From positions 11,225-75,224 of the forward strand of contig CAIYES010000095.1 of the NCBI GenBank assembly GCA_903925275.1: DNA of 64,000 nucleotides, read 5' to 3'. This document shows, piece after piece, positions 18,400 to 63,111 of this stretch; the first letter of the stretch is position 1, and each line of letters starts with the position of its first letter. A program made the position numbers and the translations under genes. The stretch is from an uncultured Bacteroidales bacterium (GTDB lineage: Bacteria; Bacteroidota; Bacteroidia; Bacteroidales; FEN-979). The notes beneath the pieces are model-generated. The model worked only from the letters and a program-made list of their open reading frames with translations. It was not told the DNA's origin and made no database searches.

Positions 18400-18400
18400 T

Positions 18401-21373: not shown

Positions 21374-21397
21374 TGTTCCACGTGAAATATAATCAAA

Positions 21398-36635: not shown

Positions 36636-37631
36636 TCAACCTCCGGCCAATCCATTGGCGTATAAATAGGTTGCAATCTGTACAGCATTGGTGGCTGCAC
36701 CTTTCCGGAGATTATCTGCAACAATGAAGAGATTCAGGGAGTTGGGCTGTGATTCGTCACGTCGAATCCTGCCGACGAATACCTCGTCTTTGCCCTTGGC
36801 CCCGATCGGCATCGGGTAAATGTTATTTTTAATATCATCCTGAACGATTATTCCGGGTGCAGCGCCAAGCAGGGCAAAAATGTCGCGGATTTCATAATCC
36901 CGGCAAAATTCCAGGTTAATGGCTTCGGAATGACCGCCCAGAACAGGAACCCTGACAATCGTGGCCGTAATCCTGATTGAATAATCATCAAGAATTTTTT
37001 GGGTTTCGTTTACCAGTTTCATCTCTTCTGAGGTATAACCATTTTCCTGAAAAACACCTCCATGAGGAAACAGGTTCAGATCGATCGGGTATGGATATGC
37101 CATTTCTCCCATAATACCCTTGCGTTCATTTTCGAGCTGTTGTATGGCTTTTGCTCCCGTTCCGGTTACCGACTGATAAGTTGACGCAACGATGCGTTTG
37201 ATTCCATATTTCGCATGAAGTGGCGCCATAACGAGTACCAATTGAATTGTTGAGCAATTGGGATTGGCGATGATCTTGTGATCTTTAGTCAGAATTGAAG
37301 CGTTTATTTCAGGGACAATTAAAGGAATTGACTGATCCATACGCCAGGCGGAGGAATTATCTATAACCGTTATTCCTGCAGCAGCATAGCGGGGAGCCCA
37401 TTCCCTTGATGCAGCAGCGCCGGCAGAAAAGATTGCAATGTCGGGCTTTGCTCCAATTGCCTGTTCGTGGGTGTGAATAAAATAACTGTTGTGGTTGAAA
37501 GTAAGTGGAAGCCCTGCTGATTTCATTGAAGCGACAGGGATGAATAATTCGGGATAAAGCTTATGTTCATCAAGAACTTTAAGAATCTCGCGTCCCACCA
37601 AACCTGTAACACCGACAATTGCCAGCTTCAT
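36636..37631 (-). CDS. asd: Aspartate-semialdehyde dehydrogenase
   Basis: MKLAIVGVTGLVGRE Rossmann start and active-site block IANPNCSTI. The ORF-track extension to 38015 merely reads through tandem repeats. Confidence 0.9.
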   Translation of the reverse strand: MKLAIVGVTGLVGREILKVLDEHKLYPELFIPVASMKSAGLPLTFNHNSYFIHTHEQAIGAKPDIAIFSAGAAASREWAPRYAAAGITVIDNSSAWRMDQSIPLIVPEINASILTKDHKIIANPNCSTIQLVLVMAPLHAKYGIKRIVASTYQSVTGTGAKAIQQLENERKGIMGEMAYPYPIDLNLFPHGGVFQENGYTSEEMKLVNETQKILDDYSIRITATIVRVPVLGGHSEAINLEFCRDYEIRDIFALLGAAPGIIVQDDIKNNIYPMPIGAKGKDEVFVGRIRRDESQPNSLNLFIVADNLRKGAATNAVQIATYLYANGLAGG

Positions 37632-37661
37632 GTTGTATTTTTTGGCAAAGGTACAGGAAAA

Positions 37662-37782
37662 ATGGTGAAATGGTGAAATGGTGAAATGGTGAAATGGTGA
37701 GATGGTGAGATGGTGAGATGGTGAAATGGTGAAATGGTGAGATGGTGAAATGGTGAAATGGTGAGATGGTGAAATGGTGAAA
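37662..37782. repeat. 8-bp tandem array, 15 units (ATGGTGAA / ATGGTGAG), in the asd / LTD-protein divergent intergenic region
   Basis: Counted directly. Unit order is a a a a g g g a a g a a g a a. The array ends 30 nt from the asd ATG. Confidence 0.95.
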
Positions 37783-37871
37783 AAAATCCGGAATGGGAAG
37801 ATTGGCGGGGAGTTTTTATCAACACAGGTATTACTTTTCGGTAATTTCCGGATTAAGCAGAAAAACCGCAT

Positions 37872-40508
37872 ATGAAAACTTTTTATTCCAGCATTGTCAA
37901 TATTGTCTGCATTGCCTGCATTGTCTGCATTTCCTGCATTGTCTGCATTTCCAGCATTTCCCAGGCCCAGGTGACGGATGATTTTTCGGATGGAAATTTT
38001 TCCAGGAACCCGCAATGGCTAGGGGATACCATGCAGTTTGAGGTCAATACGGCCGGCCAGCTTCATTTAAAAGGTCAAAGCAGCGATACATCCCTATTAA
38101 TGACAAGAAGTGAATCCAGCTCAACCACTGAATGGCGTTTTTGGATAAAATTATCGTTCAACACCTCCTCAAATAATTATGCACGAATCTATCTCGCGTC
38201 AGACACTATAAATGTATTTTCCGCGATGAATGGCTATTTTCTTCAGACGGGTGGTGGGGATGACAGCATCTTTATCATAAAACAGTCGGGCATGGTTCAG
38301 GAAAAGATATACCGTGTTCAATTTTATAAAACGTTTCATTCAACAAATACGTTTCGGATGAAAATCACACGTGATGAAGCAGGGGGCTGGGAGGTAATGA
38401 TTGATACAACCGGGGGATTTAATTATTATCAGGACGGTAGGTTTTCAGACAATTCACTCTTTCCGGCACGATGGATTGGCGTTTGTTGCCGCTATACATC
38501 CAGTAATGCAACGAAATTTTATTTTGATGATTTTTATATAGGGCCGATCATTTATGATACCATTGCACCTTCAGTTATCTCTCAGGAATTTCAGGCAGAG
38601 AAAGTTATTAGGGTTGCTTTCTCAGAGACGATAGAAAGAAGAAACGCAGAGACTCCTGAGAATTATCAACTCGGCCCGGATGTCGGATCTCCTGATTCTG
38701 TCATTATGGATGTGCAGGAGCCTGCCGTAGCTTTGTTTCTTCATGAACCAATGAAAGAAGGCATTTATGGTTCATTGCATATTCAGGGGGTTACTGATTT
38801 GGCTGGAAACCTGATGAAAGATACCGTGGTTCCGGTATGCTGGTATCGGCCGAAAGTTTTTGACATCCTTATACATGAGATCATGGCAGACCCGGATCCT
38901 CCTGTTGAATTGCCGGATGGTGAATTTGTAGAGTTGTTTAACCGCACAGATTTCCCAATAAATCTAAAGGGTTGGAGCTTCAGTTATGGAAGCTATATCA
39001 AGATATTCCCCTCAACGGTCATTTCACCAAAGGGATATTTGCTAATTGTAAAAGATTCATCCTATTTAAGTTACGCAGTATGTGCGGTTTTATTCACATC
39101 TTCCACTTCCTTATCAAATGAAGGAACTGCCCTGATACTGAAAGATCAGTGGAATCATGTTATTCACACTGTTTCATACACCCCGGAATGGTACAAAGGT
39201 TTATTTAAAGGAGAAGGCGGATGGTCGCTGGAGATGATAGATCCGGGAAATCCATGTGGTTGTGGAGAAAACTGGGGCGCATCGCAGGCAAAATCCGGAG
39301 GAACACCCGGGAGTCCAAATTCTATTGGCAAATCCAACCCTGATCTGAAAAGTCCGGTTCCCATGAGAGCCGTGATATCTGATTCGTCATCCTTGGAAGT
39401 TTACTTTTCAGAAGCAATGGACAGCACTTCATTGCTTTCACCGGCAGGCTGGATTATAGGTTCCCCGGATGGGGCGATCCACCCCGTTAGGGCTGAACCG
39501 GTTTCTCCCGGGTTTATTTCAACAAAACTATTGTTCAGCAAAGCTTTTGAACCAGGGATATCTTACACGCTCAATGTTTCGGGTGATTTTAAAGATTGTA
39601 CGGGTAACTATTGCGACACTACCCGAACAGTCAGGTTTGCGATTCCGGATTCCGTGACCCTTCATGACATCGTCATCAACGAAATTTTATCCAATCCAGC
39701 CAGTGGAGGAGCAAGATTTGTTGAGTTAATCAACCGTTCAGAAAAAATTATTGATCTGCAAACCCTGGTATTGGCGAACCGTGACACTGTAACTGGATTT
39801 CTTCCGGGTTCAACACCGCTTTTCCCTTCCGGATATTTATTGTTCCCCGGAGATTATATCGCGCTGACTTCAAGCTCTGATGAAATCCGGGACCGGTATC
39901 ATTCACCTTTCCCGGAAGCCATCGTTTCGATGCAGGGATTTCCAGTGTTCGGAGACGACACAGGAACTGTGATCCTAGCCAGAAAAGATAATTTAATGGT
40001 CATTGACAGGATTCACTATGATCCGGATATGCATTATCCATTGCTGGCAACTTCAGAAGGAGTGTCGTTGGAGCGGACCAATCCGGACATGCCCTCCGAA
40101 AGCAAAGACAATTGGCATTCGTGTGCTGAAACGGCAGGATTTGCTACTCCTGGTTTCATAAATTCGCACTTTGTCATTCATGAAACAACGGATAGGGAAA
40201 TTGTTATCGAACCGTGTGTTTTTTCACCCGACAATGATGGGCATGATGATTTATTGTCCATCATCGTCCGTGAAAATGACCCAGACTGTACGGTCAGCAT
40301 TGAAATTTATGATTCGAAAGGACGAATAATCAACCAATTAGTCAATAACGTGTTAACTGGCAGCGAGGGAATTTTCATCTGGGATGGGATGACCTCTAAC
40401 AAGAACAAGGCACCGCTTGGCTTTTATGTTTTCCTGATTGAAATAACAAGGCCGGATGGTACGGTGAAGCACTATAAAGGGACTGCCGTGCTGGGGGGAA
40501 GACTCTGA
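37872..40508 (+). CDS. Secreted protein with two lamin-tail domains (LTD) and a C-terminal beta-sandwich carrying an FSPDNDGHDD motif
   Basis: LTD signatures HEIMADPDPPVELPDGEFVELFN...LKGW and NEILSNPASGGARFVELIN. The signal peptide ends SQAQ. The C-terminal FSPDNDG motif resembles T9SS type-B/FlgD-Ig-like domains. Confidence 0.7.
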   Translation: MKTFYSSIVNIVCIACIVCISCIVCISSISQAQVTDDFSDGNFSRNPQWLGDTMQFEVNTAGQLHLKGQSSDTSLLMTRSESSSTTEWRFWIKLSFNTSSNNYARIYLASDTINVFSAMNGYFLQTGGGDDSIFIIKQSGMVQEKIYRVQFYKTFHSTNTFRMKITRDEAGGWEVMIDTTGGFNYYQDGRFSDNSLFPARWIGVCCRYTSSNATKFYFDDFYIGPIIYDTIAPSVISQEFQAEKVIRVAFSETIERRNAETPENYQLGPDVGSPDSVIMDVQEPAVALFLHEPMKEGIYGSLHIQGVTDLAGNLMKDTVVPVCWYRPKVFDILIHEIMADPDPPVELPDGEFVELFNRTDFPINLKGWSFSYGSYIKIFPSTVISPKGYLLIVKDSSYLSYAVCAVLFTSSTSLSNEGTALILKDQWNHVIHTVSYTPEWYKGLFKGEGGWSLEMIDPGNPCGCGENWGASQAKSGGTPGSPNSIGKSNPDLKSPVPMRAVISDSSSLEVYFSEAMDSTSLLSPAGWIIGSPDGAIHPVRAEPVSPGFISTKLLFSKAFEPGISYTLNVSGDFKDCTGNYCDTTRTVRFAIPDSVTLHDIVINEILSNPASGGARFVELINRSEKIIDLQTLVLANRDTVTGFLPGSTPLFPSGYLLFPGDYIALTSSSDEIRDRYHSPFPEAIVSMQGFPVFGDDTGTVILARKDNLMVIDRIHYDPDMHYPLLATSEGVSLERTNPDMPSESKDNWHSCAETAGFATPGFINSHFVIHETTDREIVIEPCVFSPDNDGHDDLLSIIVRENDPDCTVSIEIYDSKGRIINQLVNNVLTGSEGIFIWDGMTSNKNKAPLGFYVFLIEITRPDGTVKHYKGTAVLGGRL
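37891..37962. repeat. 9-bp tandem array, about 8 units (GCATTGTCT / GCATTGCCT / GCATTTCCT), inside the signal-peptide coding region of the LTD protein
   Basis: Counted directly. It translates in frame as IVNIVCIACIVCISCIVCISSIS. ATTGCCTGC is the reverse complement of the GCAGGCAAT unit at 62958-63083. Confidence 0.9.
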
Positions 40509-41289: not shown

Positions 41290-42963
41290 ATGACATTCAA
41301 TCCTTTGCTTGAGGTACGCGATCTGTCAATCGGTTTTACAGCCGACAACCAGGAGCTGATGGTGGTGGATCACATATCTTTTCAGTTAAAGGAAGCTGAA
41401 ACCCTTGCCGTAGTGGGGGAGTCGGGCTCCGGGAAAACCGTTACGGCATTGGCAATACTCAGGTTGATCCCAACACCTCCGGGTAGAATTTCAAGCGGGG
41501 AAATTTTATTCAGAAATGGGAATAGCGGGGTAACCGATATCCTGCGCATCGGGGAGGGTGAAGTTCAAAAACTCAGGGGATTCAGGATTTCAATGATTTT
41601 CCAGGAACCCATGACCTCGTTGAATCCCGTATTTACCTGCGGTGACCAGGTTACGGAAAGTCTTCGAATTCATCTGGGATTTACGAAAAAACAGTCCCGT
41701 GAAAAAGTACTGGATTTATTCAGTGAAGTTAAGCTCCCAAGGCCGGAGGCCGTGTTTAATAATTATCCGCACCAGCTTTCGGGCGGCCAGAAGCAACGTG
41801 TCATGATCGCCATGGCCATTGCATGTAATCCTGCAATTCTGATTGCTGACGAACCAACCACGGCACTGGATGTGACGGTCCAGAAAACAATTCTTGAGCT
41901 GTTAAAAAACCTGCAGTCAACCCGGAAAATGAGCATCCTGTTTATTACCCATGACCTCGGGCTTGTTGCCGGATTCGCCGACAGGGTTTTAGTTATGCAT
42001 GGAGGTAAGCTTGTTGAACAAGGTAATGTTACCGATATTTTTCAATCGCCTCAGCATGCCTACACCCGTGGATTGCTGGCTTGCCGCCCCCCGCTTGATT
42101 CCAGGCCATCCCGTTTGCCCACCATTGAAAAATATCTTAATGACAATCGGGAGGTGGCAGTACCGATCGTAACCCCGGATGAGCGAAAAAGTGAACATGA
42201 ACGGCTTTTTGCTCAGAAACCCATCTTACTCATTGAAAAACTGAGTAAACATTTTGGATCTTTTCCTGCATTGGAAAAGGCAAGTTTTAATGTATATCCA
42301 GGTGAAACCCTTGGAATTGTGGGCGAATCCGGAAGTGGAAAAACCACACTTGCCCGCGTGGTACTTGAACTTCTTCCTGCTTCCGAAGGAAAGGTGTTTT
42401 ATCGGGACTGCGATATTACAAGGCTGACCTCCCATAAACTTAAAGCACTTCGCAAAGACTTGCAGATCATATTCCAGGATCCTTATTCTTCGTTAAATCC
42501 AAGGATCTCTGCCGGTTCAGCAATTCTTGAGCCGATGAAGGTTCATAAATTGCATCGGAATGACACAACCCGAAAGGAAAGGGTGATGGAGCTCCTGCAA
42601 AAAGTTGGTCTGAAACCTGAACATTTTTCCCGTTATCCGCATGAGTTTTCGGGCGGCCAGCGGCAACGGATCTGCATTGCCAGGGCATTGGCTGTCGAAC
42701 CACGGCTGATCATCTGCGACGAATCGGTTTCAGCGTTAGATGTTTCCATCCAGGCCCAGGTATTGAACCTGCTGAATGATCTGAAAAAAGATTATGGGCT
42801 GACCTACATTTTTATCTCCCATGATCTGTCGGTTGTTAAATTCATGTCGGACCGTTTGATTGTTATGAAGAATGGAAAAATCGAAGAGATTGGAGAGGCC
42901 GACCAGGTTTATGCAAATCCACAATCGGAATATACAAGAGCGTTGCTGGAGGCGGTCAGGTAA
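41290..42963 (+). CDS. ABC transporter ATP-binding protein with two fused ATPase domains (peptide-type, YejF/GsiA-like)
   Basis: Two Walker A motifs (GESGSGKT twice), two LSGGQ signatures (LSGGQKQR, FSGGQRQR) and two Walker B motifs. No permease gene is adjacent. Confidence 0.9.
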   Translation: MTFNPLLEVRDLSIGFTADNQELMVVDHISFQLKEAETLAVVGESGSGKTVTALAILRLIPTPPGRISSGEILFRNGNSGVTDILRIGEGEVQKLRGFRISMIFQEPMTSLNPVFTCGDQVTESLRIHLGFTKKQSREKVLDLFSEVKLPRPEAVFNNYPHQLSGGQKQRVMIAMAIACNPAILIADEPTTALDVTVQKTILELLKNLQSTRKMSILFITHDLGLVAGFADRVLVMHGGKLVEQGNVTDIFQSPQHAYTRGLLACRPPLDSRPSRLPTIEKYLNDNREVAVPIVTPDERKSEHERLFAQKPILLIEKLSKHFGSFPALEKASFNVYPGETLGIVGESGSGKTTLARVVLELLPASEGKVFYRDCDITRLTSHKLKALRKDLQIIFQDPYSSLNPRISAGSAILEPMKVHKLHRNDTTRKERVMELLQKVGLKPEHFSRYPHEFSGGQRQRICIARALAVEPRLIICDESVSALDVSIQAQVLNLLNDLKKDYGLTYIFISHDLSVVKFMSDRLIVMKNGKIEEIGEADQVYANPQSEYTRALLEAVR

Positions 42964-42996
42964 TGAAATGGTGAAATAGTGAAATGGTGAAATGGT
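42962..42996. repeat. Short 8-bp array (about 4 units of TGGTGAAA-type) between the ABC ATPase stop and the rnr start
   Basis: Sequence aatgaaatggtgaaatagtgaaatggtgaaatgg, the same unit family as 37662-37782. Confidence 0.8.
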
Positions 42997-43016
42997 TTTT
43001 CGATAATAAATATTTT

Positions 43017-45173
43017 ATGGGAAAGAAGAAGAGTTTAAGTGGCAGTGAAAAAAACACCTTTGTAAAATCGGTGCTGGATGTGTTTCAGAACAATCCATAC
43101 AGCAGCTTCAATTACAAACAGGTTGCATCGAGGCTTGGGATTCAGGATCGTGCAAGCAAGGATCTGATCAGCCTGATCATCGGACAGTTATTCAAGAACC
43201 AGGAACTTGCCATGAGCAAGCGTGGGAAATACCAGATCAATACCGAAAGTCCGCGCTATGAAAAGGAGGTAAAAACCTCCCTCACCGGAACGGTCGACAT
43301 GAAACAAACCGGGAAAGCTTACGTGATCCCGGAAGATAAATCGGAAGATGTGTTTGTTGCTGCGACAAACACGAACCATGCCCTTCACGGCGATAAGGTG
43401 AAGGTGTTCATTTTTCCCCGGCGGAAGGGACATAAACTGGAAGGTGAGATAGCAGAGATCATCAAACGGAATAAGAAACAATTTGTCGGGACAATTGAAA
43501 CCTCCAAGAATTTTGCATTTCTCAGGCCTGATAATGCGACCATGCCGGTAGATATTTTCATTCCCATTTCAAAACTTAACGGAGCAAAGAACGGCCAAAA
43601 AGTTGTAGCAGTGATCACCGAATGGCCGGCCCAGTCGGCCAACCCATTCGGAGAGGTAAAAGAGGTGCTGGGGAAGCCGGGCGACAATCGTGTAGAAATG
43701 CAGTCGATACTGGCAGAAATAGATTTTCCGTTGTCTTTTTCAGCCCAGGCAGAAAAGGAAGCCTCTTCGTTTCCGGATGCCATTCCGCCTGCTGAGATCA
43801 GCACACGCAAGGATTTCAGACAGATATTTACCATTACCATTGACCCCGAGGATGCAAAGGATTTTGACGATGCCATTTCGCTGAAGCAGTTGGACAAGGG
43901 ACATTGGGAGATTGGAGTGCACATCGCTGATGTATCCTATTATGTGCAACCGGGATCGGCCATTGAGGAGGAGGCGATTGAGCGGGGAACCTCGGTTTAT
44001 ATGGTTGGTCGCACGATCCCGATGCTTCCTGAACGGTTATCAAATGGATTGTGTTCCCTGAAACAGGGCGAAGACCGGTTGTGCTTTTCGGCGGTTTTTG
44101 AAATGGATGAAACGGGTAAGATCCATGCCGAATGGTTTGGCAAGACGGTGATCAATTCGAACCGCCGTTTTGCGTATGAGGAGGTTCAGGAGATCATTGA
44201 AACCGGGAAAGGGGAATTTTCGACGGAGATCGCTGTTCTGAATAAGGTAGCCTTAAAGCTGCGTGAAGAAAGGTTCAGGAAGGGTTCGTTTAATTTTGAA
44301 ACCCAGGAGGTCAGGTTCAAACTTGATGAACTCGGCCGGCCGTTGAGCATCTATCTGCGGGAAATGAAGGATGCCAATAAGCTGATCGAAGATTTCATGT
44401 TGCTGGCAAACCGCAAGGTTGCTGAATTTATCGGAAAGAAAAGGGAAAATCAGACGGTGAAAACCTTTGTGTACAGGGTTCACGATACTCCGAATCCCGA
44501 AAAACTCGATACGTTCACCCAGTTTGTGGAGCGGCTTGGGTACAAAATGAAAATAAGTTCAAAAAAATCGCTTGCCGATTCATTTAACAAGTTGTTCAGC
44601 GATATCAAGGGCACCGGTACCGAAACCATGATCGAAACCATCGCCATCCGGACCATGTCGAAGGCCTATTATTCAACCAACAACATAGGTCATTACGGTC
44701 TGGCTTTTCAGTATTATTCACATTTCACCTCACCCATCCGCCGTTATCCCGACCTGATGGTACACCGGTTGTTGTTCAACTACATGAACAATGCCCCGTC
44801 GGTTTCGAAAGAGGTGTATGAGCCAATGTGCGAGCATGCTTCGGAAATGGAACGCAGGGCCGTTGATGCCGAAAGAATGTCGGTTAAATACAAACAAGCT
44901 GAATACATGCTTGATAAAATCGGGCAGGAATTTGATGCACTTATCTCAGGTGTAAGCAAATGGGGCATTTTTGCCGAGATCATCGGGACAAAATGTGAAG
45001 GGATGATTAGGCTTCGAGATCTGGAGGATGACTATTATTATCTTGATGAAGAAAACTACCAGATCATCGGGCAGCGCCATGGCTACCGTTTTAAGCTTGG
45101 CGACAAATTGAAAATACGGGTCAAACGCATCGATCTTGCCCGGAAGCAGATGGATTACGAGTGGGTTCCCTGA
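43017..45173 (+). CDS. rnr: Ribonuclease R
   Basis: RNB catalytic domain (TIDPEDAKDFDDA, FTSPIRRYPD) and C-terminal S1 domain. ATG at 43017 preferred over the track start inside the repeat. Confidence 0.95.
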   Translation: MGKKKSLSGSEKNTFVKSVLDVFQNNPYSSFNYKQVASRLGIQDRASKDLISLIIGQLFKNQELAMSKRGKYQINTESPRYEKEVKTSLTGTVDMKQTGKAYVIPEDKSEDVFVAATNTNHALHGDKVKVFIFPRRKGHKLEGEIAEIIKRNKKQFVGTIETSKNFAFLRPDNATMPVDIFIPISKLNGAKNGQKVVAVITEWPAQSANPFGEVKEVLGKPGDNRVEMQSILAEIDFPLSFSAQAEKEASSFPDAIPPAEISTRKDFRQIFTITIDPEDAKDFDDAISLKQLDKGHWEIGVHIADVSYYVQPGSAIEEEAIERGTSVYMVGRTIPMLPERLSNGLCSLKQGEDRLCFSAVFEMDETGKIHAEWFGKTVINSNRRFAYEEVQEIIETGKGEFSTEIAVLNKVALKLREERFRKGSFNFETQEVRFKLDELGRPLSIYLREMKDANKLIEDFMLLANRKVAEFIGKKRENQTVKTFVYRVHDTPNPEKLDTFTQFVERLGYKMKISSKKSLADSFNKLFSDIKGTGTETMIETIAIRTMSKAYYSTNNIGHYGLAFQYYSHFTSPIRRYPDLMVHRLLFNYMNNAPSVSKEVYEPMCEHASEMERRAVDAERMSVKYKQAEYMLDKIGQEFDALISGVSKWGIFAEIIGTKCEGMIRLRDLEDDYYYLDEENYQIIGQRHGYRFKLGDKLKIRVKRIDLARKQMDYEWVP

Positions 45174-45699
45174 TTTTGTGGAAATTCCTTTTAGGATTAT
45201 CTTATCGTTATCAAAAGAGACCTGAGATCAGTCAGTTCCTGGCCGGTTCAGGTATGAGGTATGAACGTCCAAAGATTAACATGACAATATTCCTATTTCA
45301 TGTTTGGGAAACCCCGGTGAAATCAACAAAAGAGTTGTTAATTAATTCACGTTTTTGAAAATATTTAACCCGGGAACCGATCTTATATCAACTCATTTTT
45401 TGTGAATCGCTTTGAAAAAGAGGATTGTATCCCTGGTTCTTCTCCAGGCTGTGGATAAAAAATCCATTGTGTAAAAGATAACAACTTGACAACCGGATAT
45501 TTATATTGTATATTGCCCTGGTTTTGTTCAAAAATGTTCCAAACTATTACCTAACCCAGTTTCGACTGGAAACCCGGTAACTACTTTGCCTGTCACTTTT
45601 TTCTATATATTGTTTAATCGCTATGGGTATAATTCCCCGCCTTGTGCAGCAGGGAAATACAATTAAATATAAACCGGATAAAACTGCAACCATTTAAAG

Positions 45700-48600
45700 A
45701 TGAGAACAATTTTCAGGCTTTTTGTAGTGCTTGGATTTATTTTTGCTATTCCAGGTCTTTCTGTTTTCAGTCAGGTTAGCATCAAAACCGATGGCAGTCC
45801 ATGCGACCCTTCAGCCATGCTGGATGTGAATGCAAAAGACCGGGGGTTACTCCTCCCGCGTATGTCGGTTGCTGCACGCAACCTGATTCTATCTCCCGCA
45901 ACCGGCCTGCTAATCTACAATACGACTTCGAACCAATTCAATTATTACAATGGCAGTCACTGGTTCCAGTTGGAAACAACCTTTATCATTTTAAAAACCG
46001 CAGGAAGCCCAAGCACAGGCAGCAACGGTGTTGCCATTGGCACTTCACTGGGAACACAGGCGGAAAGTACGGCGATGCTCGACATCAATGATCCGGCCAG
46101 GGGTATGCTGATCCCGAGAATTTCAACCTCAGCCCGCGACCTTATCCCATCGCCTGCCAATGGTTTGATCATTTACAACACATCTTCAAATCTCCTCAAT
46201 TATTACAACAATACCCGTTGGGTTACCGTGTGTGCCAGTTCAACGGGGATAACGGGTGCCAGCGGAAGCCAGGCCTCCGTCGGGATAGCTATCAAATCAG
46301 ACAATTCAAACGCGGATCCATCCGCAATACTGGATGTATCGGCTACCGACAAGGGGGTGCTGATCCCACGACTTACGAATGCCCAGCGTGATGCTATTCT
46401 TCCTGTTACCGGACTGGTCATCTATAATACCATAACCAACAATATTGAATTTTACAATGGCTCAGGCTGGTACCAGTTTGTCACAAACCTGCTCTCATCC
46501 CCATTGGCCGGTATACATGTGCCAACCGGAACAGAGATCACCTGGAACTGGAACAGCGTTGCCGGTGCCATCGGTTATAAATGGAATACGGTCGATGATT
46601 ACACAACGGCGACCGACTTGGCTGCCGTCACCACGAAGACCGAAACAGGTCTCATCCCCATCACAGCCTATTCGAGATATGTATGGGCCTACAACAGTTG
46701 CGGGGTATCGGCAGCGACCACGCTGACACAGTCGACCACAGCCTGGGCGTGCGGCTCTTCATTCACCATTGATCATGTAGCCGGCGATGTGGCACCTGTC
46801 ACAAAAACCGTTACCTACGGTACAGTTCCGAATATTGCGGGTAGTCCTGAAAAATGCTGGATTACCAGAAACCTGGGTGCCGACCAGCAGCCAACGGCCG
46901 TTGATGACGCATCCGAAGCATCGGCAGGCTGGTACTGGCAGTTTAACCGGAAACAGGGTAACAAGGTTGATCAGGATGGCTTCACCCGCAAGCCCGCTGC
47001 CACCTGGACCACGAATATTCTTGAAAGCACTTTCTGGGAGGCCGCCAACGACCCCTGCACCCATGCTCTTGGCAGCGGGTGGCGCATTCCTACTTATACG
47101 GAATGGAACTCAGTAGTAGCGCTCTTTCCAAACCATCTTAATCCATGGATATCTGATTTGAAGCTGCATGCAGCCGGTCGTCTCATCGTAGCCGATGGTT
47201 CACTATTCCAACGAGGTCTCTTCGGTGAATACTGGTGCAGCAATGGTGACGGTCCTTTAATCCCCCCCCCAGGTGTAAATACGAGCATGACCCTCTTCTT
47301 CATCGCTGGAATTATCGAAGCGGGTTTTGGGGTTAACTTTAATGCAACCGGGGAGTCGATGCGCTGCCTCAGAGATGAAGCAAGTTTCACCACTACCCCC
47401 ACCCTCACCACAACGGCTGCCGGCAATATTACTACGACAACGGCAACCGCTGGCGGCAATGTCCTCAGCGAAGGAGGGGTAGCAGGAATTGTAAAGGGTG
47501 TATGCTGGAGCACTTCACCTTTGCCCACCATTGCCGACAACCACACGACCGACGGCAGCGGAACCGGTGTGTTTACAAGCAATTTCAGCGGCCTCACGGC
47601 GAATACCCTTTATTATGCAAGGGCTTATGCTACCAATGGTTCCGGAACCGCTTACGGGAATGAGGTAAGTTTCAGGACCTTCTTCACCTGCGGTACTTCC
47701 ATCACAGTTAACCATGTTGCGGGCGATGTGGCGCCGGTTAATAAAACCGTTACCTACGGCACCGTTGCAAACATTCCCGGCGAACCAGCAAAATGCTGGA
47801 TCACCCGTAATCTGGGCGCCGACCAACAGGCTGCCGTTGATGACGATAACACCTCTGCCGCTGCAGGCTGGTACTGGCAGTTTAACCGCAAACAGGGGTA
47901 CCAGGTTGATATGAACGGGGCCAGAACACCCAATACCAGCTGGATAACCTCAATAAATGAAAACAGTGACTGGGAGGCTGCCAAGGATCCCTGTACCCTT
48001 GAACTTGGCGCTGGCTGGCGTATCCCGGCCATGTCGGAACTGGAGAACCTGGATGCAGGCGGAGCCTGGACCAATGAGAGTTTTCCTTGGAATTCCGGGT
48101 TAAAACTGCATGAAGCCGGGATCATACATGAAAATGATATGTTATTCAACCGCGGAAAGACAGGCTTTTACTGGAGCAATACACAGAACGGCGCTTCAAA
48201 GGGATGGAACCTGTTCTCCGGCGTTGGAACATGTTCCATTGAATCCAACACCAAAGTCAGTGGTATGTCGCTGCGCTGCCTCAACGATGGCGGTGCTACC
48301 ACAACCACACCTGCTGTTACAACGTTGGTTGCCAGCAATATTGCTGCTACTGCAACAACAGGCGGGGGCTATGTTTACAGTGACGGCGGAACTGCTGTAA
48401 CTTCCCGTGGAATTTGCTGGAGTAACGTACCAAATCCTACTTTGGCAAACAGCCATTCAACCAACGGCAGTGGTTCGGGTTTGTTTACTGGCAGCCTCGC
48501 CGGTCTCACACCGAATACCCTGTATTATGTATGTGCATATGCTACCAATGGTAACGGCACTGCCTATGGAAATGAAATAACTGTGACAACCACTACCAGC

Positions 48601-51600
48601 TCAACCTGCGGTACTTCCATTACCATCAATCATATAGCAGGAACCGTAGCGCCGGTGACAAAAACAGTTACTTACGGAACTGTTACAAACATACCCGGTG
48701 AACCGGCAAAATGCTGGATTACCAGCAACCTCGGGGCGGACCACCAGGCTTTGGCAATAGATGATGCCACTGAAGCCGCGGCAGGCTGGTACTGGCAGTT
48801 TAACCGCAAACAAGGGTACAAGCATGATGGAACAACCAGAACACCCCATACCGATTGGGATGAATGGATTTTTGAAAACTTTGACTGGCAGTTTGCCAAC
48901 GATCCCTGTGCCCATGAGATAGGCAGTGACTGGCGTATTCCAACGTATACCGAATGGAATAATGTTGCTGCTGGTGGAAACTGGGTAGACTGGAATGGCC
49001 CGTGGAATTCCGGTTTAAAACTCCATGCAGCAGGTTACCTGTATACTTTCAATGGTGACGGGCTGCACAACCGGGGCGAACTTGAAGATTACTGGAGCAG
49101 TTCACAGGACCCCATCTACCAAGGATGGCACCTGTTTTACCCGGGCAGTATCCAGGGCATGCCCGACGGTGGGGTGTATCATGACGGTAAAAGTTTCGGA
49201 TATCCGCTTCGTTGCATCAAAGATTCGCCCAATCCGCTCATTCCAACAGTAACAACAGCCATTGTGACGGACATCACTTCAAACACCGCCTCAGGTGGAG
49301 GAAACGTCGCTTCCGATGGAGGGGCGCTGGTAACCGCAAAAGGGGTGTGCTGGAGCACCTCGTCAAATCCTACTACTGCCAGCAGTCATACGACAGATGC
49401 CAGCCTCACAGGAGTGTTTTCAAGCAGTCTCACCGGCCTTATACAGAATACGCTATATTATGTTAGGGCATATGCAACCAACAGTGCGGGCACGGCTTAC
49501 GGAACCGGGGTGACATTTACCACCCTGAATTCTGTTCCTCCAACGGTTCTTACAACTGCCGTGACCTCCATCGCTCAAACCACCGCCACCGGCGGAGGAA
49601 ATGTCACCGCCGATGGCGGAGCACCGGTTACAGATCGTGGTGTATGCTGGAGCGCCGCATCAAATCCAACCATCCCCGGGAACAGCCATACCAATGATGG
49701 CAGCGGTACCGGAGTGTTCACCAGCAGTCTCACAGGCCTCACAGCGAATACCCTGTACCACACAAGGGCCTATGCGACCAACAATGCAGGAACGGCTTAT
49801 GGACTGGATTTGACCTTTACCACCCTGCCAAATCCGGTTATTCCAACAGTAACCACAACAGCAGCAACAGTTATAGCTCAAACCACCGCGACCAGCGGAG
49901 GAAATGTCACCGCCAATGGCGGAGCACCGGTTACAAATCGTGGCGTATGCTGGAGCACCGCATCAAATCCAACCATCCCCGGGAACAGTCATACCAACGA
50001 TGGCGGTGGCACCGGAGTGTTCATCAGCAGTCTCACAGGTCTCGCTGCGAATACCCTCTATCATGTCAGAGCGTATTCAACAAACAGCGCGGGTACTGCT
50101 TATGGGACAGACCTGACGTTCACCACATTAAACGGGGTTCTTCCATCGGTAACTACAACATCGGTTACAGAAATCACCAAGACGACTGCCACCGGAGGAG
50201 GGAATGTACTTTCTGACGGCGAAGTTACGGTCACGGCCCGTGGCATATGCTGGAGTACATCATCCCCACCTTTGGTCACGAATTATCATACGACCGATGG
50301 CGGCGGAACCGGGGCATTCACAAGCAGCCTCACCGGCCTGGCCCAGAACACCCGGTATTATGTAAGGGCTTATGCAACAAACAGTATCGGTACCGCTTAC
50401 GGGAATGTAGTAGATTTTTTAACACTCAATCCCTGTCCCGGAATTGAAACCATCACCATAAACCATGTTTCAGGTAATGTATCTCCGGAAAATAAAACCG
50501 TTACCTATGGAACTGTCATGGGTATCCCCGGAGAACCTTCAAAATGCTGGATTACCAGTAACCTGGGCGCCGACCACCAGGCAACCGCTGTTAATGATGC
50601 CACAGAACCTTCGGCAGGATGGTACTGGCAGTTCAACCGGAAGCAGGGATACAAAAACGCCGGATCAACCGTACCGGCATGGACGACAACCTATGTCAAT
50701 GAAAATCTGAACTGGGAGGCTGCCAATGACCCGTGTTTCGTTGAACTTGGTGCCGGCTGGCGTATTCCTACCTCCAGTGAATTGGGTAATGTAAGCGGAA
50801 GCTGGACCAACTGGAACGGTCCATGGAATTCAGGTTTAAAGCTCCATGCTGCCGGGTTCCTGTTCAGCAATGGTTCACTGCAAGCCCGTGGTTCCTATGG
50901 CAATTACTGGAGCAGTGAGCAGTTCGGCAATACCAATGGCTGGTACCTGAATTTTACCAGCACAACCGTCAACCCGGGCATCGTTTCAAAAGCTTACGGC
51001 ATGTCGATCCGCTGCCTGATGGATGCCACGGCCACGGTAACAACAACCGTGGTTACCAATATTGCCTCAACTACCGCCATCTCAGGCGGTAATGTTGTGA
51101 ACGAAGGCTTATCTGCCGTTACTGTCAGGGGTGTTTGCTGGAGCACTACAACATCTCCCACCATCTACGGTAATAATACTGCTGATGGTAGCGGAACCGG
51201 TGTTTTTGTGAGCAACCTGGCCGGTCTTACGCCGAATACATTGTATTATTTAAGGGCCTATGCGACGAACAGTGCCGGAACGGCATATGGGAATGAAGTC
51301 AGTTTCACAACTTCCGCTGTATTTCTCTGCGGATCCTCCCTAACCATCAACCATCTGATATCAGGAGGTGTTGCTCCTGTTGATAAATCAGTAACCTATG
51401 GCACCGTGACTAATTTACCCGGCGAACCTTCAAAATGCTGGATCACAAGTAACCTGGGGGCAAGTCAGCAATCGACCGCCGTGGATGACAATACCGAGGC
51501 TTCTGCCGGCTGGTACTGGCAATTCAACCGGATGCAGGGATACATGAATGATGGTTCAACCTATCCGTCGTGGACGATAACCAGCATCAGTGAAAATGCC

Positions 51601-51930
51601 AACTGGGAACCCGCCAACGACCCGTGTGTCATTGAACTTGGCGCAGGTTGGAGGATACCTACATTTACCGAATGGGACAATGTGAATACATGGGGCGGCT
51701 GGGCAAACTGGGACGATGCCTGGGCCTCTGAGCTCAAACTGCATGCGGCCGGGAACCTTGCTTATTGGTACGGTGGGATATTCTACAACCGGGGTTCACA
51801 GGGCTTATACTGGAGCAGCACGCAGAATGACGATATTACCGGCTATTACCTGTTCCTCTTTTCGGGATATACCACCATGAGTACAATTGAAAAGGCATCC
51901 GGCTGCCCGGTGCGCTGCCTTAAAGAGTAA
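45700..51930 (+). CDS. Giant modular cell-surface protein: 3 N-terminal ~55-aa repeats, 5 Fib_succ_major-like domains and about 10 Fn3-like modules
   Basis: Signal peptide. Repeats (A/S)xLD(V/I)...G(L/M/V)L(L/I)PR...YN(T)...YYNG..W occur 3 times. Modules H(V/I)AG.VAPV.KTVTYGTV...KCWIT.NLGA...GWRIPT..EW...YWSS...RCL occur 5 times. Modules GGNV..DGG..VT.RGVCWS...NTLYY.RAYATN.AGTAYG occur about 10 times. Confidence 0.85.
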   Translation: MRTIFRLFVVLGFIFAIPGLSVFSQVSIKTDGSPCDPSAMLDVNAKDRGLLLPRMSVAARNLILSPATGLLIYNTTSNQFNYYNGSHWFQLETTFIILKTAGSPSTGSNGVAIGTSLGTQAESTAMLDINDPARGMLIPRISTSARDLIPSPANGLIIYNTSSNLLNYYNNTRWVTVCASSTGITGASGSQASVGIAIKSDNSNADPSAILDVSATDKGVLIPRLTNAQRDAILPVTGLVIYNTITNNIEFYNGSGWYQFVTNLLSSPLAGIHVPTGTEITWNWNSVAGAIGYKWNTVDDYTTATDLAAVTTKTETGLIPITAYSRYVWAYNSCGVSAATTLTQSTTAWACGSSFTIDHVAGDVAPVTKTVTYGTVPNIAGSPEKCWITRNLGADQQPTAVDDASEASAGWYWQFNRKQGNKVDQDGFTRKPAATWTTNILESTFWEAANDPCTHALGSGWRIPTYTEWNSVVALFPNHLNPWISDLKLHAAGRLIVADGSLFQRGLFGEYWCSNGDGPLIPPPGVNTSMTLFFIAGIIEAGFGVNFNATGESMRCLRDEASFTTTPTLTTTAAGNITTTTATAGGNVLSEGGVAGIVKGVCWSTSPLPTIADNHTTDGSGTGVFTSNFSGLTANTLYYARAYATNGSGTAYGNEVSFRTFFTCGTSITVNHVAGDVAPVNKTVTYGTVANIPGEPAKCWITRNLGADQQAAVDDDNTSAAAGWYWQFNRKQGYQVDMNGARTPNTSWITSINENSDWEAAKDPCTLELGAGWRIPAMSELENLDAGGAWTNESFPWNSGLKLHEAGIIHENDMLFNRGKTGFYWSNTQNGASKGWNLFSGVGTCSIESNTKVSGMSLRCLNDGGATTTTPAVTTLVASNIAATATTGGGYVYSDGGTAVTSRGICWSNVPNPTLANSHSTNGSGSGLFTGSLAGLTPNTLYYVCAYATNGNGTAYGNEITVTTTTSSTCGTSITINHIAGTVAPVTKTVTYGTVTNIPGEPAKCWITSNLGADHQALAIDDATEAAAGWYWQFNRKQGYKHDGTTRTPHTDWDEWIFENFDWQFANDPCAHEIGSDWRIPTYTEWNNVAAGGNWVDWNGPWNSGLKLHAAGYLYTFNGDGLHNRGELEDYWSSSQDPIYQGWHLFYPGSIQGMPDGGVYHDGKSFGYPLRCIKDSPNPLIPTVTTAIVTDITSNTASGGGNVASDGGALVTAKGVCWSTSSNPTTASSHTTDASLTGVFSSSLTGLIQNTLYYVRAYATNSAGTAYGTGVTFTTLNSVPPTVLTTAVTSIAQTTATGGGNVTADGGAPVTDRGVCWSAASNPTIPGNSHTNDGSGTGVFTSSLTGLTANTLYHTRAYATNNAGTAYGLDLTFTTLPNPVIPTVTTTAATVIAQTTATSGGNVTANGGAPVTNRGVCWSTASNPTIPGNSHTNDGGGTGVFISSLTGLAANTLYHVRAYSTNSAGTAYGTDLTFTTLNGVLPSVTTTSVTEITKTTATGGGNVLSDGEVTVTARGICWSTSSPPLVTNYHTTDGGGTGAFTSSLTGLAQNTRYYVRAYATNSIGTAYGNVVDFLTLNPCPGIETITINHVSGNVSPENKTVTYGTVMGIPGEPSKCWITSNLGADHQATAVNDATEPSAGWYWQFNRKQGYKNAGSTVPAWTTTYVNENLNWEAANDPCFVELGAGWRIPTSSELGNVSGSWTNWNGPWNSGLKLHAAGFLFSNGSLQARGSYGNYWSSEQFGNTNGWYLNFTSTTVNPGIVSKAYGMSIRCLMDATATVTTTVVTNIASTTAISGGNVVNEGLSAVTVRGVCWSTTTSPTIYGNNTADGSGTGVFVSNLAGLTPNTLYYLRAYATNSAGTAYGNEVSFTTSAVFLCGSSLTINHLISGGVAPVDKSVTYGTVTNLPGEPSKCWITSNLGASQQSTAVDDNTEASAGWYWQFNRMQGYMNDGSTYPSWTITSISENANWEPANDPCVIELGAGWRIPTFTEWDNVNTWGGWANWDDAWASELKLHAAGNLAYWYGGIFYNRGSQGLYWSSTQNDDITGYYLFLFSGYTTMSTIEKASGCPVRCLKE

Positions 51931-52062: not shown

Positions 52063-53520
52063 ATGAACAAGAATTTTGCAAACACGGGAAATAGCTTTTT
52101 AATTGCATTTTTTCTTTTACTGGTCTCCCATTTTTATTGCCCGGCCCAGGGAAAAGATGTTACGGTAACCATACACCTGCGAGGTGTTTATGACAGCAAA
52201 ATAAGCCTTTTGGCCCTTTCTGTATCAAAAACATTTAAACCCATCGTGGAAGTACCGGGAATAAAAGATGGCGAAACCACAAAAATAACGGTCACCAGCG
52301 ATCACCTGCCCGGGGAGTTTGTACTGCGGTTCGACTACAGGGACAAAGAGTCAAGTACGCCATATCCTTCGGAGAAAAATCTTTTCATCAATGCCCAAAA
52401 CCTGGAACTGTGGGTCAGTCCGAAATACTGCAACAATTCCGACAGTACGCATTTCCAGGTGGGAGAACTGGAAAATGCCGCATTTGCCAGTTTTTCAAAA
52501 GAAAACAGCAAACAAAAGGACAAACTGGCCCTGCTTCAGAATTTTTTACTGAACTATGATGACACGCAATCGGCATTCTACCAGCAGGGCATTAATGAAT
52601 ATGAACAGCGGCGGCAAAGCTACAACCAGTGGCTGGCAGCCCGGGAACAACAGGATAAGGCACTTTTTGTAAGCAACTTGTATGATTTTCAGTATGTGCC
52701 GGAAACATCCTGGAATGGCACGGAAACCGACCGGATTGAAAGCCTGATAAAGCACTATTTTGACGGCATGGATTTTAAGGATCCCCTGCTGGTTAAAACC
52801 GCCGAGCTGAACAAATGGATGGACGGTTATGTAAACCTTTACGGCCGTCAATCAACCACCGTAGCGCTACGCGACTCCCTGTTCCCCATTGCCGGACGAG
52901 CTGCGATAGAGAAAGCTAAAAGGGGACATCCGCTGATATATGGCTGGATGGTGGATTATTTTTATAAAGGATACGAAACCAATGGGATAACCGCCGGGAT
53001 GAAAATTTTGAAACCGTATCTGAATGATACGAACTGCCTCACATCAAAACGGCAGGAAATTGCACGCAGGCTGAAAGGCATGGAAACCCTGGTGCCCGGA
53101 ACCAAAGCTCCTGATATTTCATTGAAAGATTCGGATGGCAATTTTTTTGAACTGAACACATTCGAAACATCGGCAAAGTATATTCTGTTGCTTTTCTGGT
53201 CGGCTGATTGCAGCCATTGTGTAAAAATGGTCGATCAGTTATATCCCTGGCATCAGCAAACAGAAACCCGGCAGAAAATTGCAGTTGTGGCAATCAGCCT
53301 GGATGAAACAGATATTGAGGTGAAAGTATGGGATAAAAAGATCAAAGGACTGTCAGGGTGGAAGCATATGCGGGGTTCAGATGGTATCCGCAGCAAAGTA
53401 GCAGCCGATTACTTTGTTTTAGCAACACCATTTATGGTTCTGATTGATGAAAAAACCAGGGAGATTATTGATACGCCAAATACGCTGGAGGAATTGATGA
53501 ATGCCATGCAGAAAAAATAG
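52063..53520 (+). CDS. TlpA/AhpC-like thioredoxin-fold thiol:disulfide oxidoreductase with a large N-terminal domain
   Basis: Signal peptide and a C-terminal thioredoxin fold with LLLFWSADCSHC (CxxC). Confidence 0.75.
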   Translation: MNKNFANTGNSFLIAFFLLLVSHFYCPAQGKDVTVTIHLRGVYDSKISLLALSVSKTFKPIVEVPGIKDGETTKITVTSDHLPGEFVLRFDYRDKESSTPYPSEKNLFINAQNLELWVSPKYCNNSDSTHFQVGELENAAFASFSKENSKQKDKLALLQNFLLNYDDTQSAFYQQGINEYEQRRQSYNQWLAAREQQDKALFVSNLYDFQYVPETSWNGTETDRIESLIKHYFDGMDFKDPLLVKTAELNKWMDGYVNLYGRQSTTVALRDSLFPIAGRAAIEKAKRGHPLIYGWMVDYFYKGYETNGITAGMKILKPYLNDTNCLTSKRQEIARRLKGMETLVPGTKAPDISLKDSDGNFFELNTFETSAKYILLLFWSADCSHCVKMVDQLYPWHQQTETRQKIAVVAISLDETDIEVKVWDKKIKGLSGWKHMRGSDGIRSKVAADYFVLATPFMVLIDEKTREIIDTPNTLEELMNAMQKK

Positions 53521-53526: not shown

Positions 53527-54260
53527 TCACGCCAATTTCTTCCGCTCCACCAAATCGAAAAAAGTTTTGTGATAGGTTTCGCTTACCGGGATGTACTGGT
53601 CGCCGATCTTGATACGGTTCCGCTCGATCGATTCGATTTTATCCAAGGCAATAAAAAAGGATTTATGAACCCTGCAGAACTGGGGCTCATGCAACACCTC
53701 TTCTAATTTACGGGCATTCATGAGGGTCATAATCCTTCGCGTTTTTGTTACAATCCGCCAGTAATCACCCATGCCTTCGACGTATAGCACATCGTTGTTT
53801 TCAATGCGTTCCATACGGGTCTCGGTTTCACAAAGAAAAAGGATGGTTCCGCAGTCTTTGGCTTGACATTTTCCGGTTTGATTGCTCCAGTATCAAATTG
53901 CATGCGTTCGCACACCTTGTTAACTCCTTTGATGAAACGTTCAAAAGAGATGGGTTTCAGCATGTAATCCACCACATCAAGTTCAAAGCCCTGTATGGCA
54001 TAACGCTCATATGCGGTGGTGAAAATCACGAAAGGACGATGTTTCAGCGCATTCAGCAACTGAATTCCGGTGAGTTCCTCCATCTGGATATCCAGGAAGA
54101 TCAGGTCGATTTTGTTTGACCGAATATATTCAATGGATTCAATGGCATTGTCGAATGTTTTCAGCAGGTTGAGGAAAACCACTTTTGAACAGTAATCTTT
54201 AATGATGTCGAGCGCCAGAGGCTCATCATCAATTGCAATACAGTTGATATTCATATCCAA
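53527..54260 (-). pseudogene. LytTR-family response regulator interrupted by a 1-nt frameshift between the receiver and LytTR domains
   Basis: The receiver domain (54260-53748) and the LytTR domain (53814-53527; VLYVEGMGDYWRIVT, RVHKSF) are in different frames. Adding one A at gtgaaacc (plus strand 53826-53828) restores FFFVKTETRMERI. Confidence 0.75.
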
Positions 54261-62245: not shown

Positions 62246-62958
62246 ACATCCGGTGTTTAATAATCGATGATGAACCGCTTGCACAGCGTGTCATTGAAAA
62301 GTATACTGAGAATATTCCGTTTCTCGAGATCGTCGGGAAATGCAGCAATGCGGTTGAAGCCATTGAAGTGCTGCATAACCGGGAGGTTGATCTTTTATTC
62401 CTGGATATCAACATGCCAAGGCTTAATGGCATGGACTTTCTTAAAACCCTGAAAAACCCGCCATTGGTCATCATTACCACGGCCTATGCTGAATATGCCA
62501 TCCAGGGGTATGAGCTTGATGTAGTTGATTATCTGATGAAACCGTTTGCTTTTGACCGGTTTTACAAGGCCATCCAGAAAGTCGAAGAGATGATAAAAGG
62601 GAGGGAAATACCCCAAACCGAAGCCAAAGAGGCAACCAGACAGGAAGAGACCTTCATTTTTGTCAAATCAAGTAAAAAAACCTATAAGGTCAACCTGGAT
62701 GAAATCCTTTACATTGAAGCTTTGGGAGATTATGTAAAGATATACACCACAGAGAAAATGATTATCAGCTACCAGTCGCTGAAGAATATTGAATCACTCC
62801 TGCCGGCCTCCTCTTTCCCGCGGATTCATAAATCATTTATCATAGCCTTGTCGCGTATTGATCTGATCGAGGGGAATCACGTAAAGATCAAAGACCGGCA
62901 GATTCCGATCGGCACTAATTTTAAATCTGAATTTGAGAGGCTTATTAAATCTATTTAA
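62242..62958 (+). CDS. LytTR-family response regulator
   Basis: Receiver domain (IIDDEP, DLLFLDINMP, KPF) plus LytTR domain (ILYIEALGDYVKIYT, RIHKSF). It overlaps the kinase stop by 4 nt. Confidence 0.9.
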   Translation: MNIRCLIIDDEPLAQRVIEKYTENIPFLEIVGKCSNAVEAIEVLHNREVDLLFLDINMPRLNGMDFLKTLKNPPLVIITTAYAEYAIQGYELDVVDYLMKPFAFDRFYKAIQKVEEMIKGREIPQTEAKEATRQEETFIFVKSSKKTYKVNLDEILYIEALGDYVKIYTTEKMIISYQSLKNIESLLPASSFPRIHKSFIIALSRIDLIEGNHVKIKDRQIPIGTNFKSEFERLIKSI

Positions 62959-63083
62959 TGCAGGCCATGCAAACAATGCAGGCAATGCAGGCAATGCAAA
63001 CAATGCAGGCAATGCAAACAATGCAGGCAATGCAGGCAATGCAAACAATGCAGGCAATGCAAACAATGCAGGCAATGCAGGCA
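62958..63083. repeat. 9-bp tandem array, 14 units (ATGCAGGCA / ATGCAAACA), beginning at the response-regulator stop codon (TAATG)
   Basis: Counted directly. Higher-order 45-nt periodicity (units A G G A G). It is open on the plus strand as MQAMQTMQAMQA...I, with the stop at 63087-63089. Confidence 0.95.
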
Positions 63084-63111
63084 ATTTAAATTATGCAGGA
63101 ATGTATTAATT

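Follow-up and report, generated by a model that had tools for sequence, protein, structure and literature searches.

A module-terminated mosaic protein with five FISUMP-like modules, a PTL_trimer head and a thioredoxin-like neighbour in an uncultured Bacteroidales bacterium

The gene studied here is a single long open reading frame (ORF) that starts with ATG and occupies positions 45700..51930 (+) of a 64-kb stretch of contig CAIYES010000095.1, from an uncultured Bacteroidales bacterium; this whole stretch is called the window in what follows. Its product of 2076 aa consists of a signal peptide, three N-terminal repeats, a segment of ~80 aa and a chain of two module types, large (M) and fibronectin type III-like (Fn3-like, F), in the order M1-F1-M2-F2-M3-F3-F4-F5-F6-M4-F7-M5, as established by motif anchoring and self-alignment (Table 1). 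The upstream neighbour is the gene of RNase R (42984..45173) and the downstream one encodes a thioredoxin-like protein. The gene is intact and belongs to a family of mosaic proteins that is very large, highly paralogous and already annotated, and within which it is not exceptional.

The five M modules are ~200 aa long, show pairwise identities of 53–60% and each end in RC[LI]; at the DNA level, five copies of a 222-nt unit are found with 66–75% identity. The F modules, of ~100 aa, are 55–67% identical to one another, and the 81% DNA identity between F4 and F5 points to a recent duplication. No further copies of the three module types were found elsewhere in the window. The original prediction, which had described a 2076-aa protein with a signal peptide and five modules of ~200 aa, agrees with the ORF, with the type I shape of its N-terminus and with the modules as located. 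It had also proposed an alternation with about ten Fn3-like modules and three N-terminal repeats of ~55 aa. The alternation and the number of repeats hold, but there are eight Fn3-like units (seven 'GVCWS...AYG' modules plus one segment), and the repeated domain measures ~70 aa with a period of ~85 aa.

Table 1. Positions in the window of the parts of the gene, its upstream region and its probable partner gene.
Feature	Position	Strand	Residues (aa)	Remarks
Upstream intergenic region	45174..45699	+		526 bp, 35.9% GC, AT-rich; presumed promoter location
Signal peptide	45700..45771	+	1-24	predicted signal peptidase I cut ...VFS/QVSIK, leaving N-terminal Gln; read from sequence
N-terminal head, three PTL_trimer (PF26696) repeats	45772..46509	+	30-101, 116-187, 200-270	a single compact all-beta body in the model
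Fn3-like linker	46510..46746	+	271-349	~80 aa; ITWNWNSVAGAIGYKWN ... YVWAYNSCG
M1, FISUMP-like C-type-lectin-like module	46747..47385	+	350-562	
F1, Fn3-like 'GVCWS...AYG' module	47386..47691	+	563-664	matches NF049889 N-terminal domain
M2	47692..48297	+	665-866	PF09603 20.6 bits, Lcl_C 21 bits, TIGR02145 18 bits
F2	48298..48606	+	867-969	
M3	48607..49233	+	970-1178	
F3-F6, four tandem Fn3-like modules	49234..50436	+	1179-1579	
M4	50437..51033	+	1580-1778	PF09603 29.9 bits, TIGR02145 27.3 bits
F7	51034..51330	+	1779-1877	
M5, C-terminal module	51331..51930	+	1878-2076	ends ...VRCLKE, then stop; TIGR02145 30.7 bits
Probable partner gene, 485-aa exported thioredoxin-fold protein (TlpA/ResA-like)	52063..53520	+		C383-S-H-C386; 132 bp downstream of the 2076-aa gene

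The integrity of the gene can be judged from its relatives. An orthologue from a different assembly (P0001) is 94% identical, has likewise 2076 aa and lies in identical synteny, with a 527-bp gap, a 485-aa thioredoxin-like protein, a LytTR regulator, a histidine kinase and a CarboxypepD_reg protein in this order. Moreover, the C-terminus lies no more than 5 aa from the module end in 98 of 120 relatives, with an RC[LIV]x[DE] ending. Since the independent assembly gives the same product and flanks and these relatives end alike, truncation or misassembly is excluded. A C-terminus formed by a module is the normal architecture of the family, and the end of the protein inside its fifth module, earlier regarded as abrupt and possibly truncated, is no anomaly.

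The family of the M modules was searched with hidden Markov models (HMMs). On the whole protein, TIGR02145 (FISUMP) obtains 62.9 bits against a cutoff of 41.65 (E 6.1e-17, summed over the modules). Taken singly, the modules obtain 15.3–30.7 bits with the same model and at most 29.9 bits with PF09603 (cutoff 33.9), none reaching its cutoff, and M1 has no PF09603 match. The alignment with TIGR02145 covers nearly the full model, residues 34–198 of M5 being aligned to positions 18–175 of 176. The Lcl_C model (PF07603, formerly DUF1566) gives 30.5 bits on the whole protein and 17.7–21 per module, below its gathering threshold of 34.9. Among 50 diverse module sequences taken from the protein and its relatives, 43 match TIGR02145 at E≤0.01, 26 match PF09603 and 15 match Lcl_C, none of them at cutoff, with a best E-value of 8.7e-8 (TIGR02145). 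By these profile matches, the large modules are a divergent branch of the FISUMP/DUF1566 superfamily; we call them divergent because the whole protein passes the TIGR02145 cutoff and no single module does. The FISUMP assignment that had been proposed is thereby supported, for a divergent form of the domain.

NCBI gives the name of the FISUMP family (TIGR02145/PF09603, Fib_succ_major) to relatives such as P0006, P0032, P0087 and P0094, and both the family and the present protein are highly paralogous within genomes and have no tested function. There are also differences: the 2076-aa protein has a signal peptidase I signal and a PTL_trimer head, whereas the family description expects a lipoprotein signal (quoted in PMC11661182), and the five modules, which are all sub-threshold (15–31 bits versus 41.65), alternate here with Fn3-like spacers in one long chain.

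Searches of the PDB with single sequences of each module type gave only noise, and those with profiles gave a marginal Lcl match for the M modules. An AlphaFold2 model of M5, built on the alignment of the family modules, reached a predicted local distance difference test (pLDDT) score of 95.1 and a predicted template-modelling (pTM) score of 0.91. Its top Foldseek match in the PDB is the C-terminal domain of Legionella Lcl (8q4e_A; E 5.3e-4, probability 0.99, TM-scores of 0.29/0.42). This is the sole significant fold match there, followed by weaker ones with snake-venom C-type lectin-like proteins, the Bdellovibrio Bd2740 fibre tip and CLEC4D. Thus, the modelling supports a C-type-lectin-like fold class for the M modules, as the original prediction had guessed, but it does not support a close relationship to Lcl, because the TM-scores are low.

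Among solved structures, the Lcl of Legionella pneumophila nevertheless matches the module best. Its C-terminal domain is C-type-lectin-like, contains DUF1566, binds sulphated glycosaminoglycans and is devoid of the canonical Ca2+/carbohydrate motifs (EPN/QPD, WND) (PMC11162425). Besides the fold, both proteins share a general plan, with an element for surface association at the N-terminus, a long stalk and a binding head at the C-terminus. In Lcl, however, the C-terminal domain has no disulfides and forms a homotrimer on a collagen stalk, and the protein is a type II secretion system substrate of a gammaproteobacterium; here, five tandem monomeric modules with conserved cysteines are separated by Fn3-like spacers.

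Conservation within the modules was computed over 379 module instances. Every instance has the DPC and RCL cysteines, and 96% retain the KCW cysteine; all 15 instances that have lost the latter have also lost the first cysteine. This joint loss is consistent with two disulfides per module. The most conserved segment is GWYWQFNRxQGY, with an entropy of 0.58 bits, and the C-terminal third (positions ~142–192) is the most variable part, with 2.7–3.0 bits. All five modules are net acidic (D+E > K+R), which argues against a heparin-like ligand.

The spacers are more difficult to classify. PF00041 obtains 36.8 bits on the whole protein (gathering threshold 25), no single stretch passes, and single modules stay at ~13 bits. 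Profile matches of the F modules to Fn3 domains of the PDB cover the F/G strands only (E 0.13). The seven F modules match the NF049889 N-terminal domain with a summed E-value of 1.2e-58. The segment at residues 271–349, which is conserved between head and first module in relatives, has the Fn3 F/G-strand motif only and no significant HMM match, which makes its assignment as Fn3-like a weak one.

The three N-terminal repeats are PTL_trimer (PF26696) domains according to the annotation of the orthologue P0001 (E≤1e-5) and of head relatives: a search with residues 25–270 retrieved 287 proteins, and PF26696 is annotated on all 120 of the matches listed. The repeats as such had been noticed before, but not their identity with a domain of phage tail tips. 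No literature on PF26696, PTL_trimer or DUF8237 was found. In 164 relatives, the median start of the first repeat is residue 27, and the signal peptide that immediately precedes it ends in [AS]/Q[VI]. The best AlphaFold2 model of the three-repeat head has a pLDDT of 93.5 and a pTM of 0.89; it has no fold relative in the PDB (best E 3.1), and it matches many uncultured tailed-phage proteins in BFVD, with a probability per repeat of ~1.0, 31–37% identity and a root-mean-square deviation of 1.4–2.8 Å.

The phage relationship of the head is also found at the sequence level. Both tblastn and HMM place the repeat at the very C-terminal end of two cyanophage proteins, those of Synechococcus phage Sf-CH8 gp21 (residues 756–865 of 867), a 'tail protein' whose gene adjoins that of a tail fibre, and of Leptolyngbya phage Lbo-JY46 gp257 (residues 320–377 of 381). 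The shared unit, of ~60 aa with the pattern LDV..kG.L.PR.t..qR..i..P..GL.vYNT....l.yYnG..W, is 43–46% identical (tblastn). In these phage proteins, there is no signal peptide and the unit stands at the very end, whereas here three copies form the N-terminus of a Sec-exported mature protein. In an exhaustive search with a head profile, 57,060 representative proteins were matched at E≤1e-3, of which 29,079 at E≤1e-10. The match to the three repeats is mostly one stretch at residues ~20–270, and sometimes lies internally or at the C-terminus. In small proteins, the PF26696 domain is found together with DUF2793, the phage tail collar domain and the Peptidase_S74 chaperone, and the genes of small PTL_trimer proteins, often arranged in tandem pairs, have ordinary chromosomal surroundings.

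Two such tandem pairs, in a Lutibacter sp. (L078, 6001–7964) and at a second locus (L077, 985–3272), encode adjacent small PTL_trimer proteins with signal peptides in non-phage contexts, and one of these proteins has a Peptidase_S74 intramolecular-chaperone domain at its end. These features are suggestive of Sec-exported trimeric fibres built on a PTL_trimer head.

Regarding export, the N-terminus of the 2076-aa protein (MRTIFRLFVVLGFIFAIPGLSVFS/QV) is shaped like a type I signal peptide, and no cysteine is present in residues 1–34, hence there is no lipobox. The relatives show [AS]/Q[VI]x[IV] at the cleavage position, and such [AS]/Q[VI] sites fit the Q-rule of signal peptidase I substrates in Bacteroidetes (PMC5837995). 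No C-terminal domain of the type IX secretion system (T9SS) was matched at E≤0.1 in Pfam and NCBIfam (PF18962/TIGR04183, PF13585/TIGR04131), the protein ending inside M5. The absence of both sorting devices had been correctly read before. An upstream gene of the same window (37872–40508 (+), 878 aa) encodes lamin-tail domains, Big_5 and a CHU_C type IX secretion domain; it shows that the organism uses the T9SS for other large surface proteins.

The relatives of the protein carry different devices at their ends. Among the 120 relatives in which they were counted, 53 have the PTL_trimer head and 17 have a lipobox cysteine followed by an acidic (K/Q/E)-KD-x-D/E stretch, two of these 17 being scored as headed as well; five have a Por_Secre_tail T9SS domain, never together with the head. 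The acidic stretch resembles the surface-export signal of Bacteroidota lipoproteins. The near exclusion between head, lipobox and T9SS domain among paralogues suggests that the three serve a related purpose in localisation.

The original prediction, which described the 2076-aa gene and its upstream region, had not noticed the downstream neighbour or its conservation. The 485-aa protein combines a signal peptide with a thioredoxin-fold domain and weakly matches ResA, TlpA and TrbB, and no terminator-like site was found on the + strand between the two genes. When the flanking ORFs of 74 related loci (1.18 Mb) were clustered, full-length homologues of the partner, 37–73% identical, were found in 19 loci; in ~12 of the loci the homologue lies 36–460 bp downstream of a module-terminated relative on the same strand. 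These ~12 loci span Bacteroidales, Marinilabiliales and Flavobacteriales, with examples in Flavobacterium yafengii (relative of 4099 aa), Sunxiuqinia rutila (5573 aa) and a metagenome-assembled genome (MAG) of Prolixibacteraceae (6174 aa). Since the 2076-aa protein has 34 cysteines, it is a reasonable reading that the partner would act as a dedicated periplasmic thiol-disulfide oxidoreductase.

Relatives are encoded in 427 genomic stretches of species-representative genomes, with up to eight kept loci from one MAG, and are annotated as 'FISUMP domain-containing protein' or 'hypothetical protein'. Uncultured Bacteroidales of freshwater and sediment are their main source, and members are also found in Flavobacterium, Pedobacter and Sunxiuqinia. 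The giant relatives of 4099–6174 aa in Sunxiuqinia (L028), the Prolixibacteraceae MAG (L036) and F. yafengii (L045) have ~28–30 consecutive Fn3-like modules, followed by a tail of alternating modules and spacers, and a divergent single head repeat. Other recurrent neighbours of the family (for instance at L011 5613–8651 and L007 9464–10483) include WD40 plus caspase (Peptidase_C14) proteins at seven loci, FGE-sulfatase-domain proteins at seven, LytS-type histidine kinases at 13 and further unannotated giant proteins at 20.

With moderate confidence, we think that the gene encodes an intact, Sec-exported, disulfide-rich protein of the 'beads-on-a-string' type, which would bind glycans or surfaces in a multivalent way. 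Signal peptidase I would cleave the precursor and leave an N-terminal Gln, so that the mature protein would open with a compact head of three PTL_trimer repeats, a domain also present at the distal tip of some phage tail proteins. The flexible chain of Fn3-like spacers behind it would bear the five FISUMP-type C-type-lectin-like modules, the last one being the C-terminus. Each module would combine a conserved aromatic core (GWYWQFNRxQGY, GWRIPT, YWSS) and probably two disulfides with its hypervariable C-terminal third; because of this combination of conserved core and variable third, five related but non-identical binding sites are likely, which may bind to glycans, particles or cell surfaces by avidity. 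The adjacent exported CxxC protein of thioredoxin fold would probably help to form or repair the ~ten disulfides. The whole construction may be displayed at the cell surface, with the head serving as an anchor or as a second binding tip.

Several points weigh against this reading. We know of no binding assay for any FISUMP domain, and the function is extrapolated from the fold and from a distant relative, Lcl, which has no disulfides and acts as a trimer. The Foldseek TM-scores to Lcl and to the snake-venom lectin-like proteins are low (0.25–0.45), and every PDB fold match except that to Lcl has E>0.1. The five models of the head spread in pLDDT from 67 to 93.5. No outer-membrane translocation or anchoring signal was found in the protein, which could stay periplasmic or be released. 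In addition, the partner gene accompanies a sub-lineage only, six of the 61 large family ORFs with enough downstream sequence.

The last but one of these points leads to the most serious alternative, namely a soluble protein, periplasmic or freely secreted, that would capture or scavenge polysaccharides, for example, its head being a second ligand-binding tip and not an anchor, and the protein not being a cell-attached adhesin. This alternative is in keeping with a type I signal peptide that is accompanied by no lipid anchor, T9SS C-terminal domain or beta-barrel, with the position of the phage domain at the distal, typically binding, end of the tail protein, and with the internal or C-terminal location that the PTL_trimer unit sometimes has in other proteins. 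However, paralogues with the same body carry surface-directing devices at the head position or at the tail (a lipobox with the acidic export-signal-like motif, or a T9SS domain), and a 220-kDa array spaced by Fn3-like modules is typical of surface fibres. We consider a soluble protein unlikely, while granting it an appreciable share of the probability.

A bolder proposal can also be made, which we regard as speculative and rather improbable. The PTL_trimer head, which in paralogues is interchangeable with lipoprotein and T9SS signals, might be a new device to display large Bacteroidota proteins on the surface without lipid anchor or T9SS domain, by non-covalent docking onto the cell's own surface glycans or an outer-membrane partner, and the three repeats might imitate, within one chain, the trimer of a fibre tip. 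In that case, the gene would be one example among tens of thousands of protein clusters, a very large class of 'lectin fibres' derived from phages and served by a dedicated periplasmic thiol-disulfide oxidoreductase.

The remaining alternatives are much weaker. The modules might be enzymes, since the formylglycine-generating enzyme (FGE)/EgtB family shares the C-type-lectin-like fold; one of the 50 module sequences has a marginal EgtB match (E 0.004), FGE-sulfatase genes lie near some relatives, and PF03781 is found within P0054 and P0115. However, no module matches PF03781, the best structural relatives are non-catalytic binding domains, and five tandem copies on spacers are an architecture of avidity and not of catalysis, so that we give enzymes very little credit.

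Slightly less credible still is that the gene is the target of a diversity-generating retroelement (DGR), in which a reverse transcriptase would use a template repeat to rewrite the lectin-fold module at the C-terminus as a variable region. Among reported DGR target proteins, 43 are annotated as FISUMP, and many carry DUF1566, mostly from freshwater and wastewater MAGs (PMC11661182), and the 2076-aa protein ends in such a domain, whose C-terminal third is hypervariable. Nevertheless, no part of the gene is repeated outside it within the 64 kb, the window has neither an adenine-biased repeat pair nor an ORF like reverse transcriptase (YxDD plus an upstream [LIVM]Gx.xSQ), and across the 74 related loci (1.18 Mb) only one 54-nt match was obtained, at chance level. 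A DGR acting in cis is largely refuted by these scans (self-BLAST for adenine bias, reverse-transcriptase motifs in window and 74 loci, and repeat inventory). The concept of a diversifying lectin-fold tip that recognises varied surfaces is shared with DGR variable proteins and with the mosaic adhesive fibre tips of Bdellovibrio, to one of which (Bd2740 C-terminal domain, 8oks) the module has a weak fold resemblance (E 0.45); the 2076-aa protein differs from both in having no trimeric fibre and no DGR machinery in the window.

Truncation or misassembly of the gene, with its true C-terminal sorting domain elsewhere, might be suspected because repetitive genes are prone to assembly collapse and the T9SS domain is absent in an organism with T9SS cargo, but the second assembly, the shared ending of the relatives and the conserved neighbouring gene after the stop codon make it extremely improbable. 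A tail-fibre gene of a prophage or tailocin, as the head domain of phage tail proteins and its co-occurrence with Peptidase_S74 and tail collar domains in small bacterial proteins could suggest, is equally hard to believe given the Sec signal peptide, the housekeeping flanks (RNase R, ABC ATPase, thioredoxin-like protein and two-component system) with no phage genes found in the neighbourhood, the GC content at third codon positions (GC3), which is like that of the neighbours, and the synteny kept in related species.

In environmental Bacteroidota, FISUMP and PTL_trimer count among the protein modules that have expanded most. The gene unites both with a conserved redox partner, and in our opinion it is a reasonable candidate for work on expression, glycan arrays and localisation; further work would be best directed at the head of phage-tail-tip type and at the redox partner. 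Should the modules bind polysaccharides or cell surfaces, then a major part of the attachment of freshwater and sediment Bacteroidota to particles, algae or prey would have been overlooked in this family.

The flanks of the gene are Bacteroidota-like, with a Peptidase S46, a CarboxypepD_reg protein and the CHU_C protein. A foreign origin was considered, since the gene has 52% GC against ~42% in its flanks, and rejected: its GC3 of 0.523 falls within the 0.43–0.555 of the neighbours, and the excess is located at codon position 2 (0.548) because of a composition rich in Thr, Gly, Ala and Ser. The 526-bp upstream gap was measured as had been stated, and its length is kept in the orthologous contig; the idea that it is special was not upheld. 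Rfam gave no match to it, it contains neither notable inverted repeats nor a TAnnTTTG (Bacteroidota −7) motif, and the one sigma-70-like match of a promoter scan (45486–45514) occurs at chance-level frequency. Nothing was found in the gap of a regulatory RNA, an invertible promoter or a small ORF.

Some minor observations were made in the rest of the window. The LytTR-type regulator (53527–54260 (−)) is broken into two ORFs that overlap in different frames, a receiver part of 170 aa (53748–54260) and another part of 95 aa (53527–53814); it is intact in the orthologous contig, with 242 aa, and the copy in the window has a frameshift that is either a pseudogene mutation or a sequencing error. 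An 8-nt tandem repeat (AAATGGTG/AGATGGTG) of ~17 units lies at 37628–37812, a short way upstream of the start (37872) of the T9SS-cargo gene, and a second short array of the same unit lies at 42942–43022, at the junction of the ABC ATPase and RNase R genes. It could be a slippage-prone simple repeat with a role in phase variation, or a regulatory element. A 9-nt tandem repeat (AATGCAGGC/AATGCAAAC) of ~14 units is present at 62930–63117, in the gap between the genes ending at 62958 and 63143. Finally, the region 14000–26000 has a low GC content (33–37%, versus 40–45% elsewhere) and strongly positive GC skew (up to 0.23) and AT skew at 16–20 kb.

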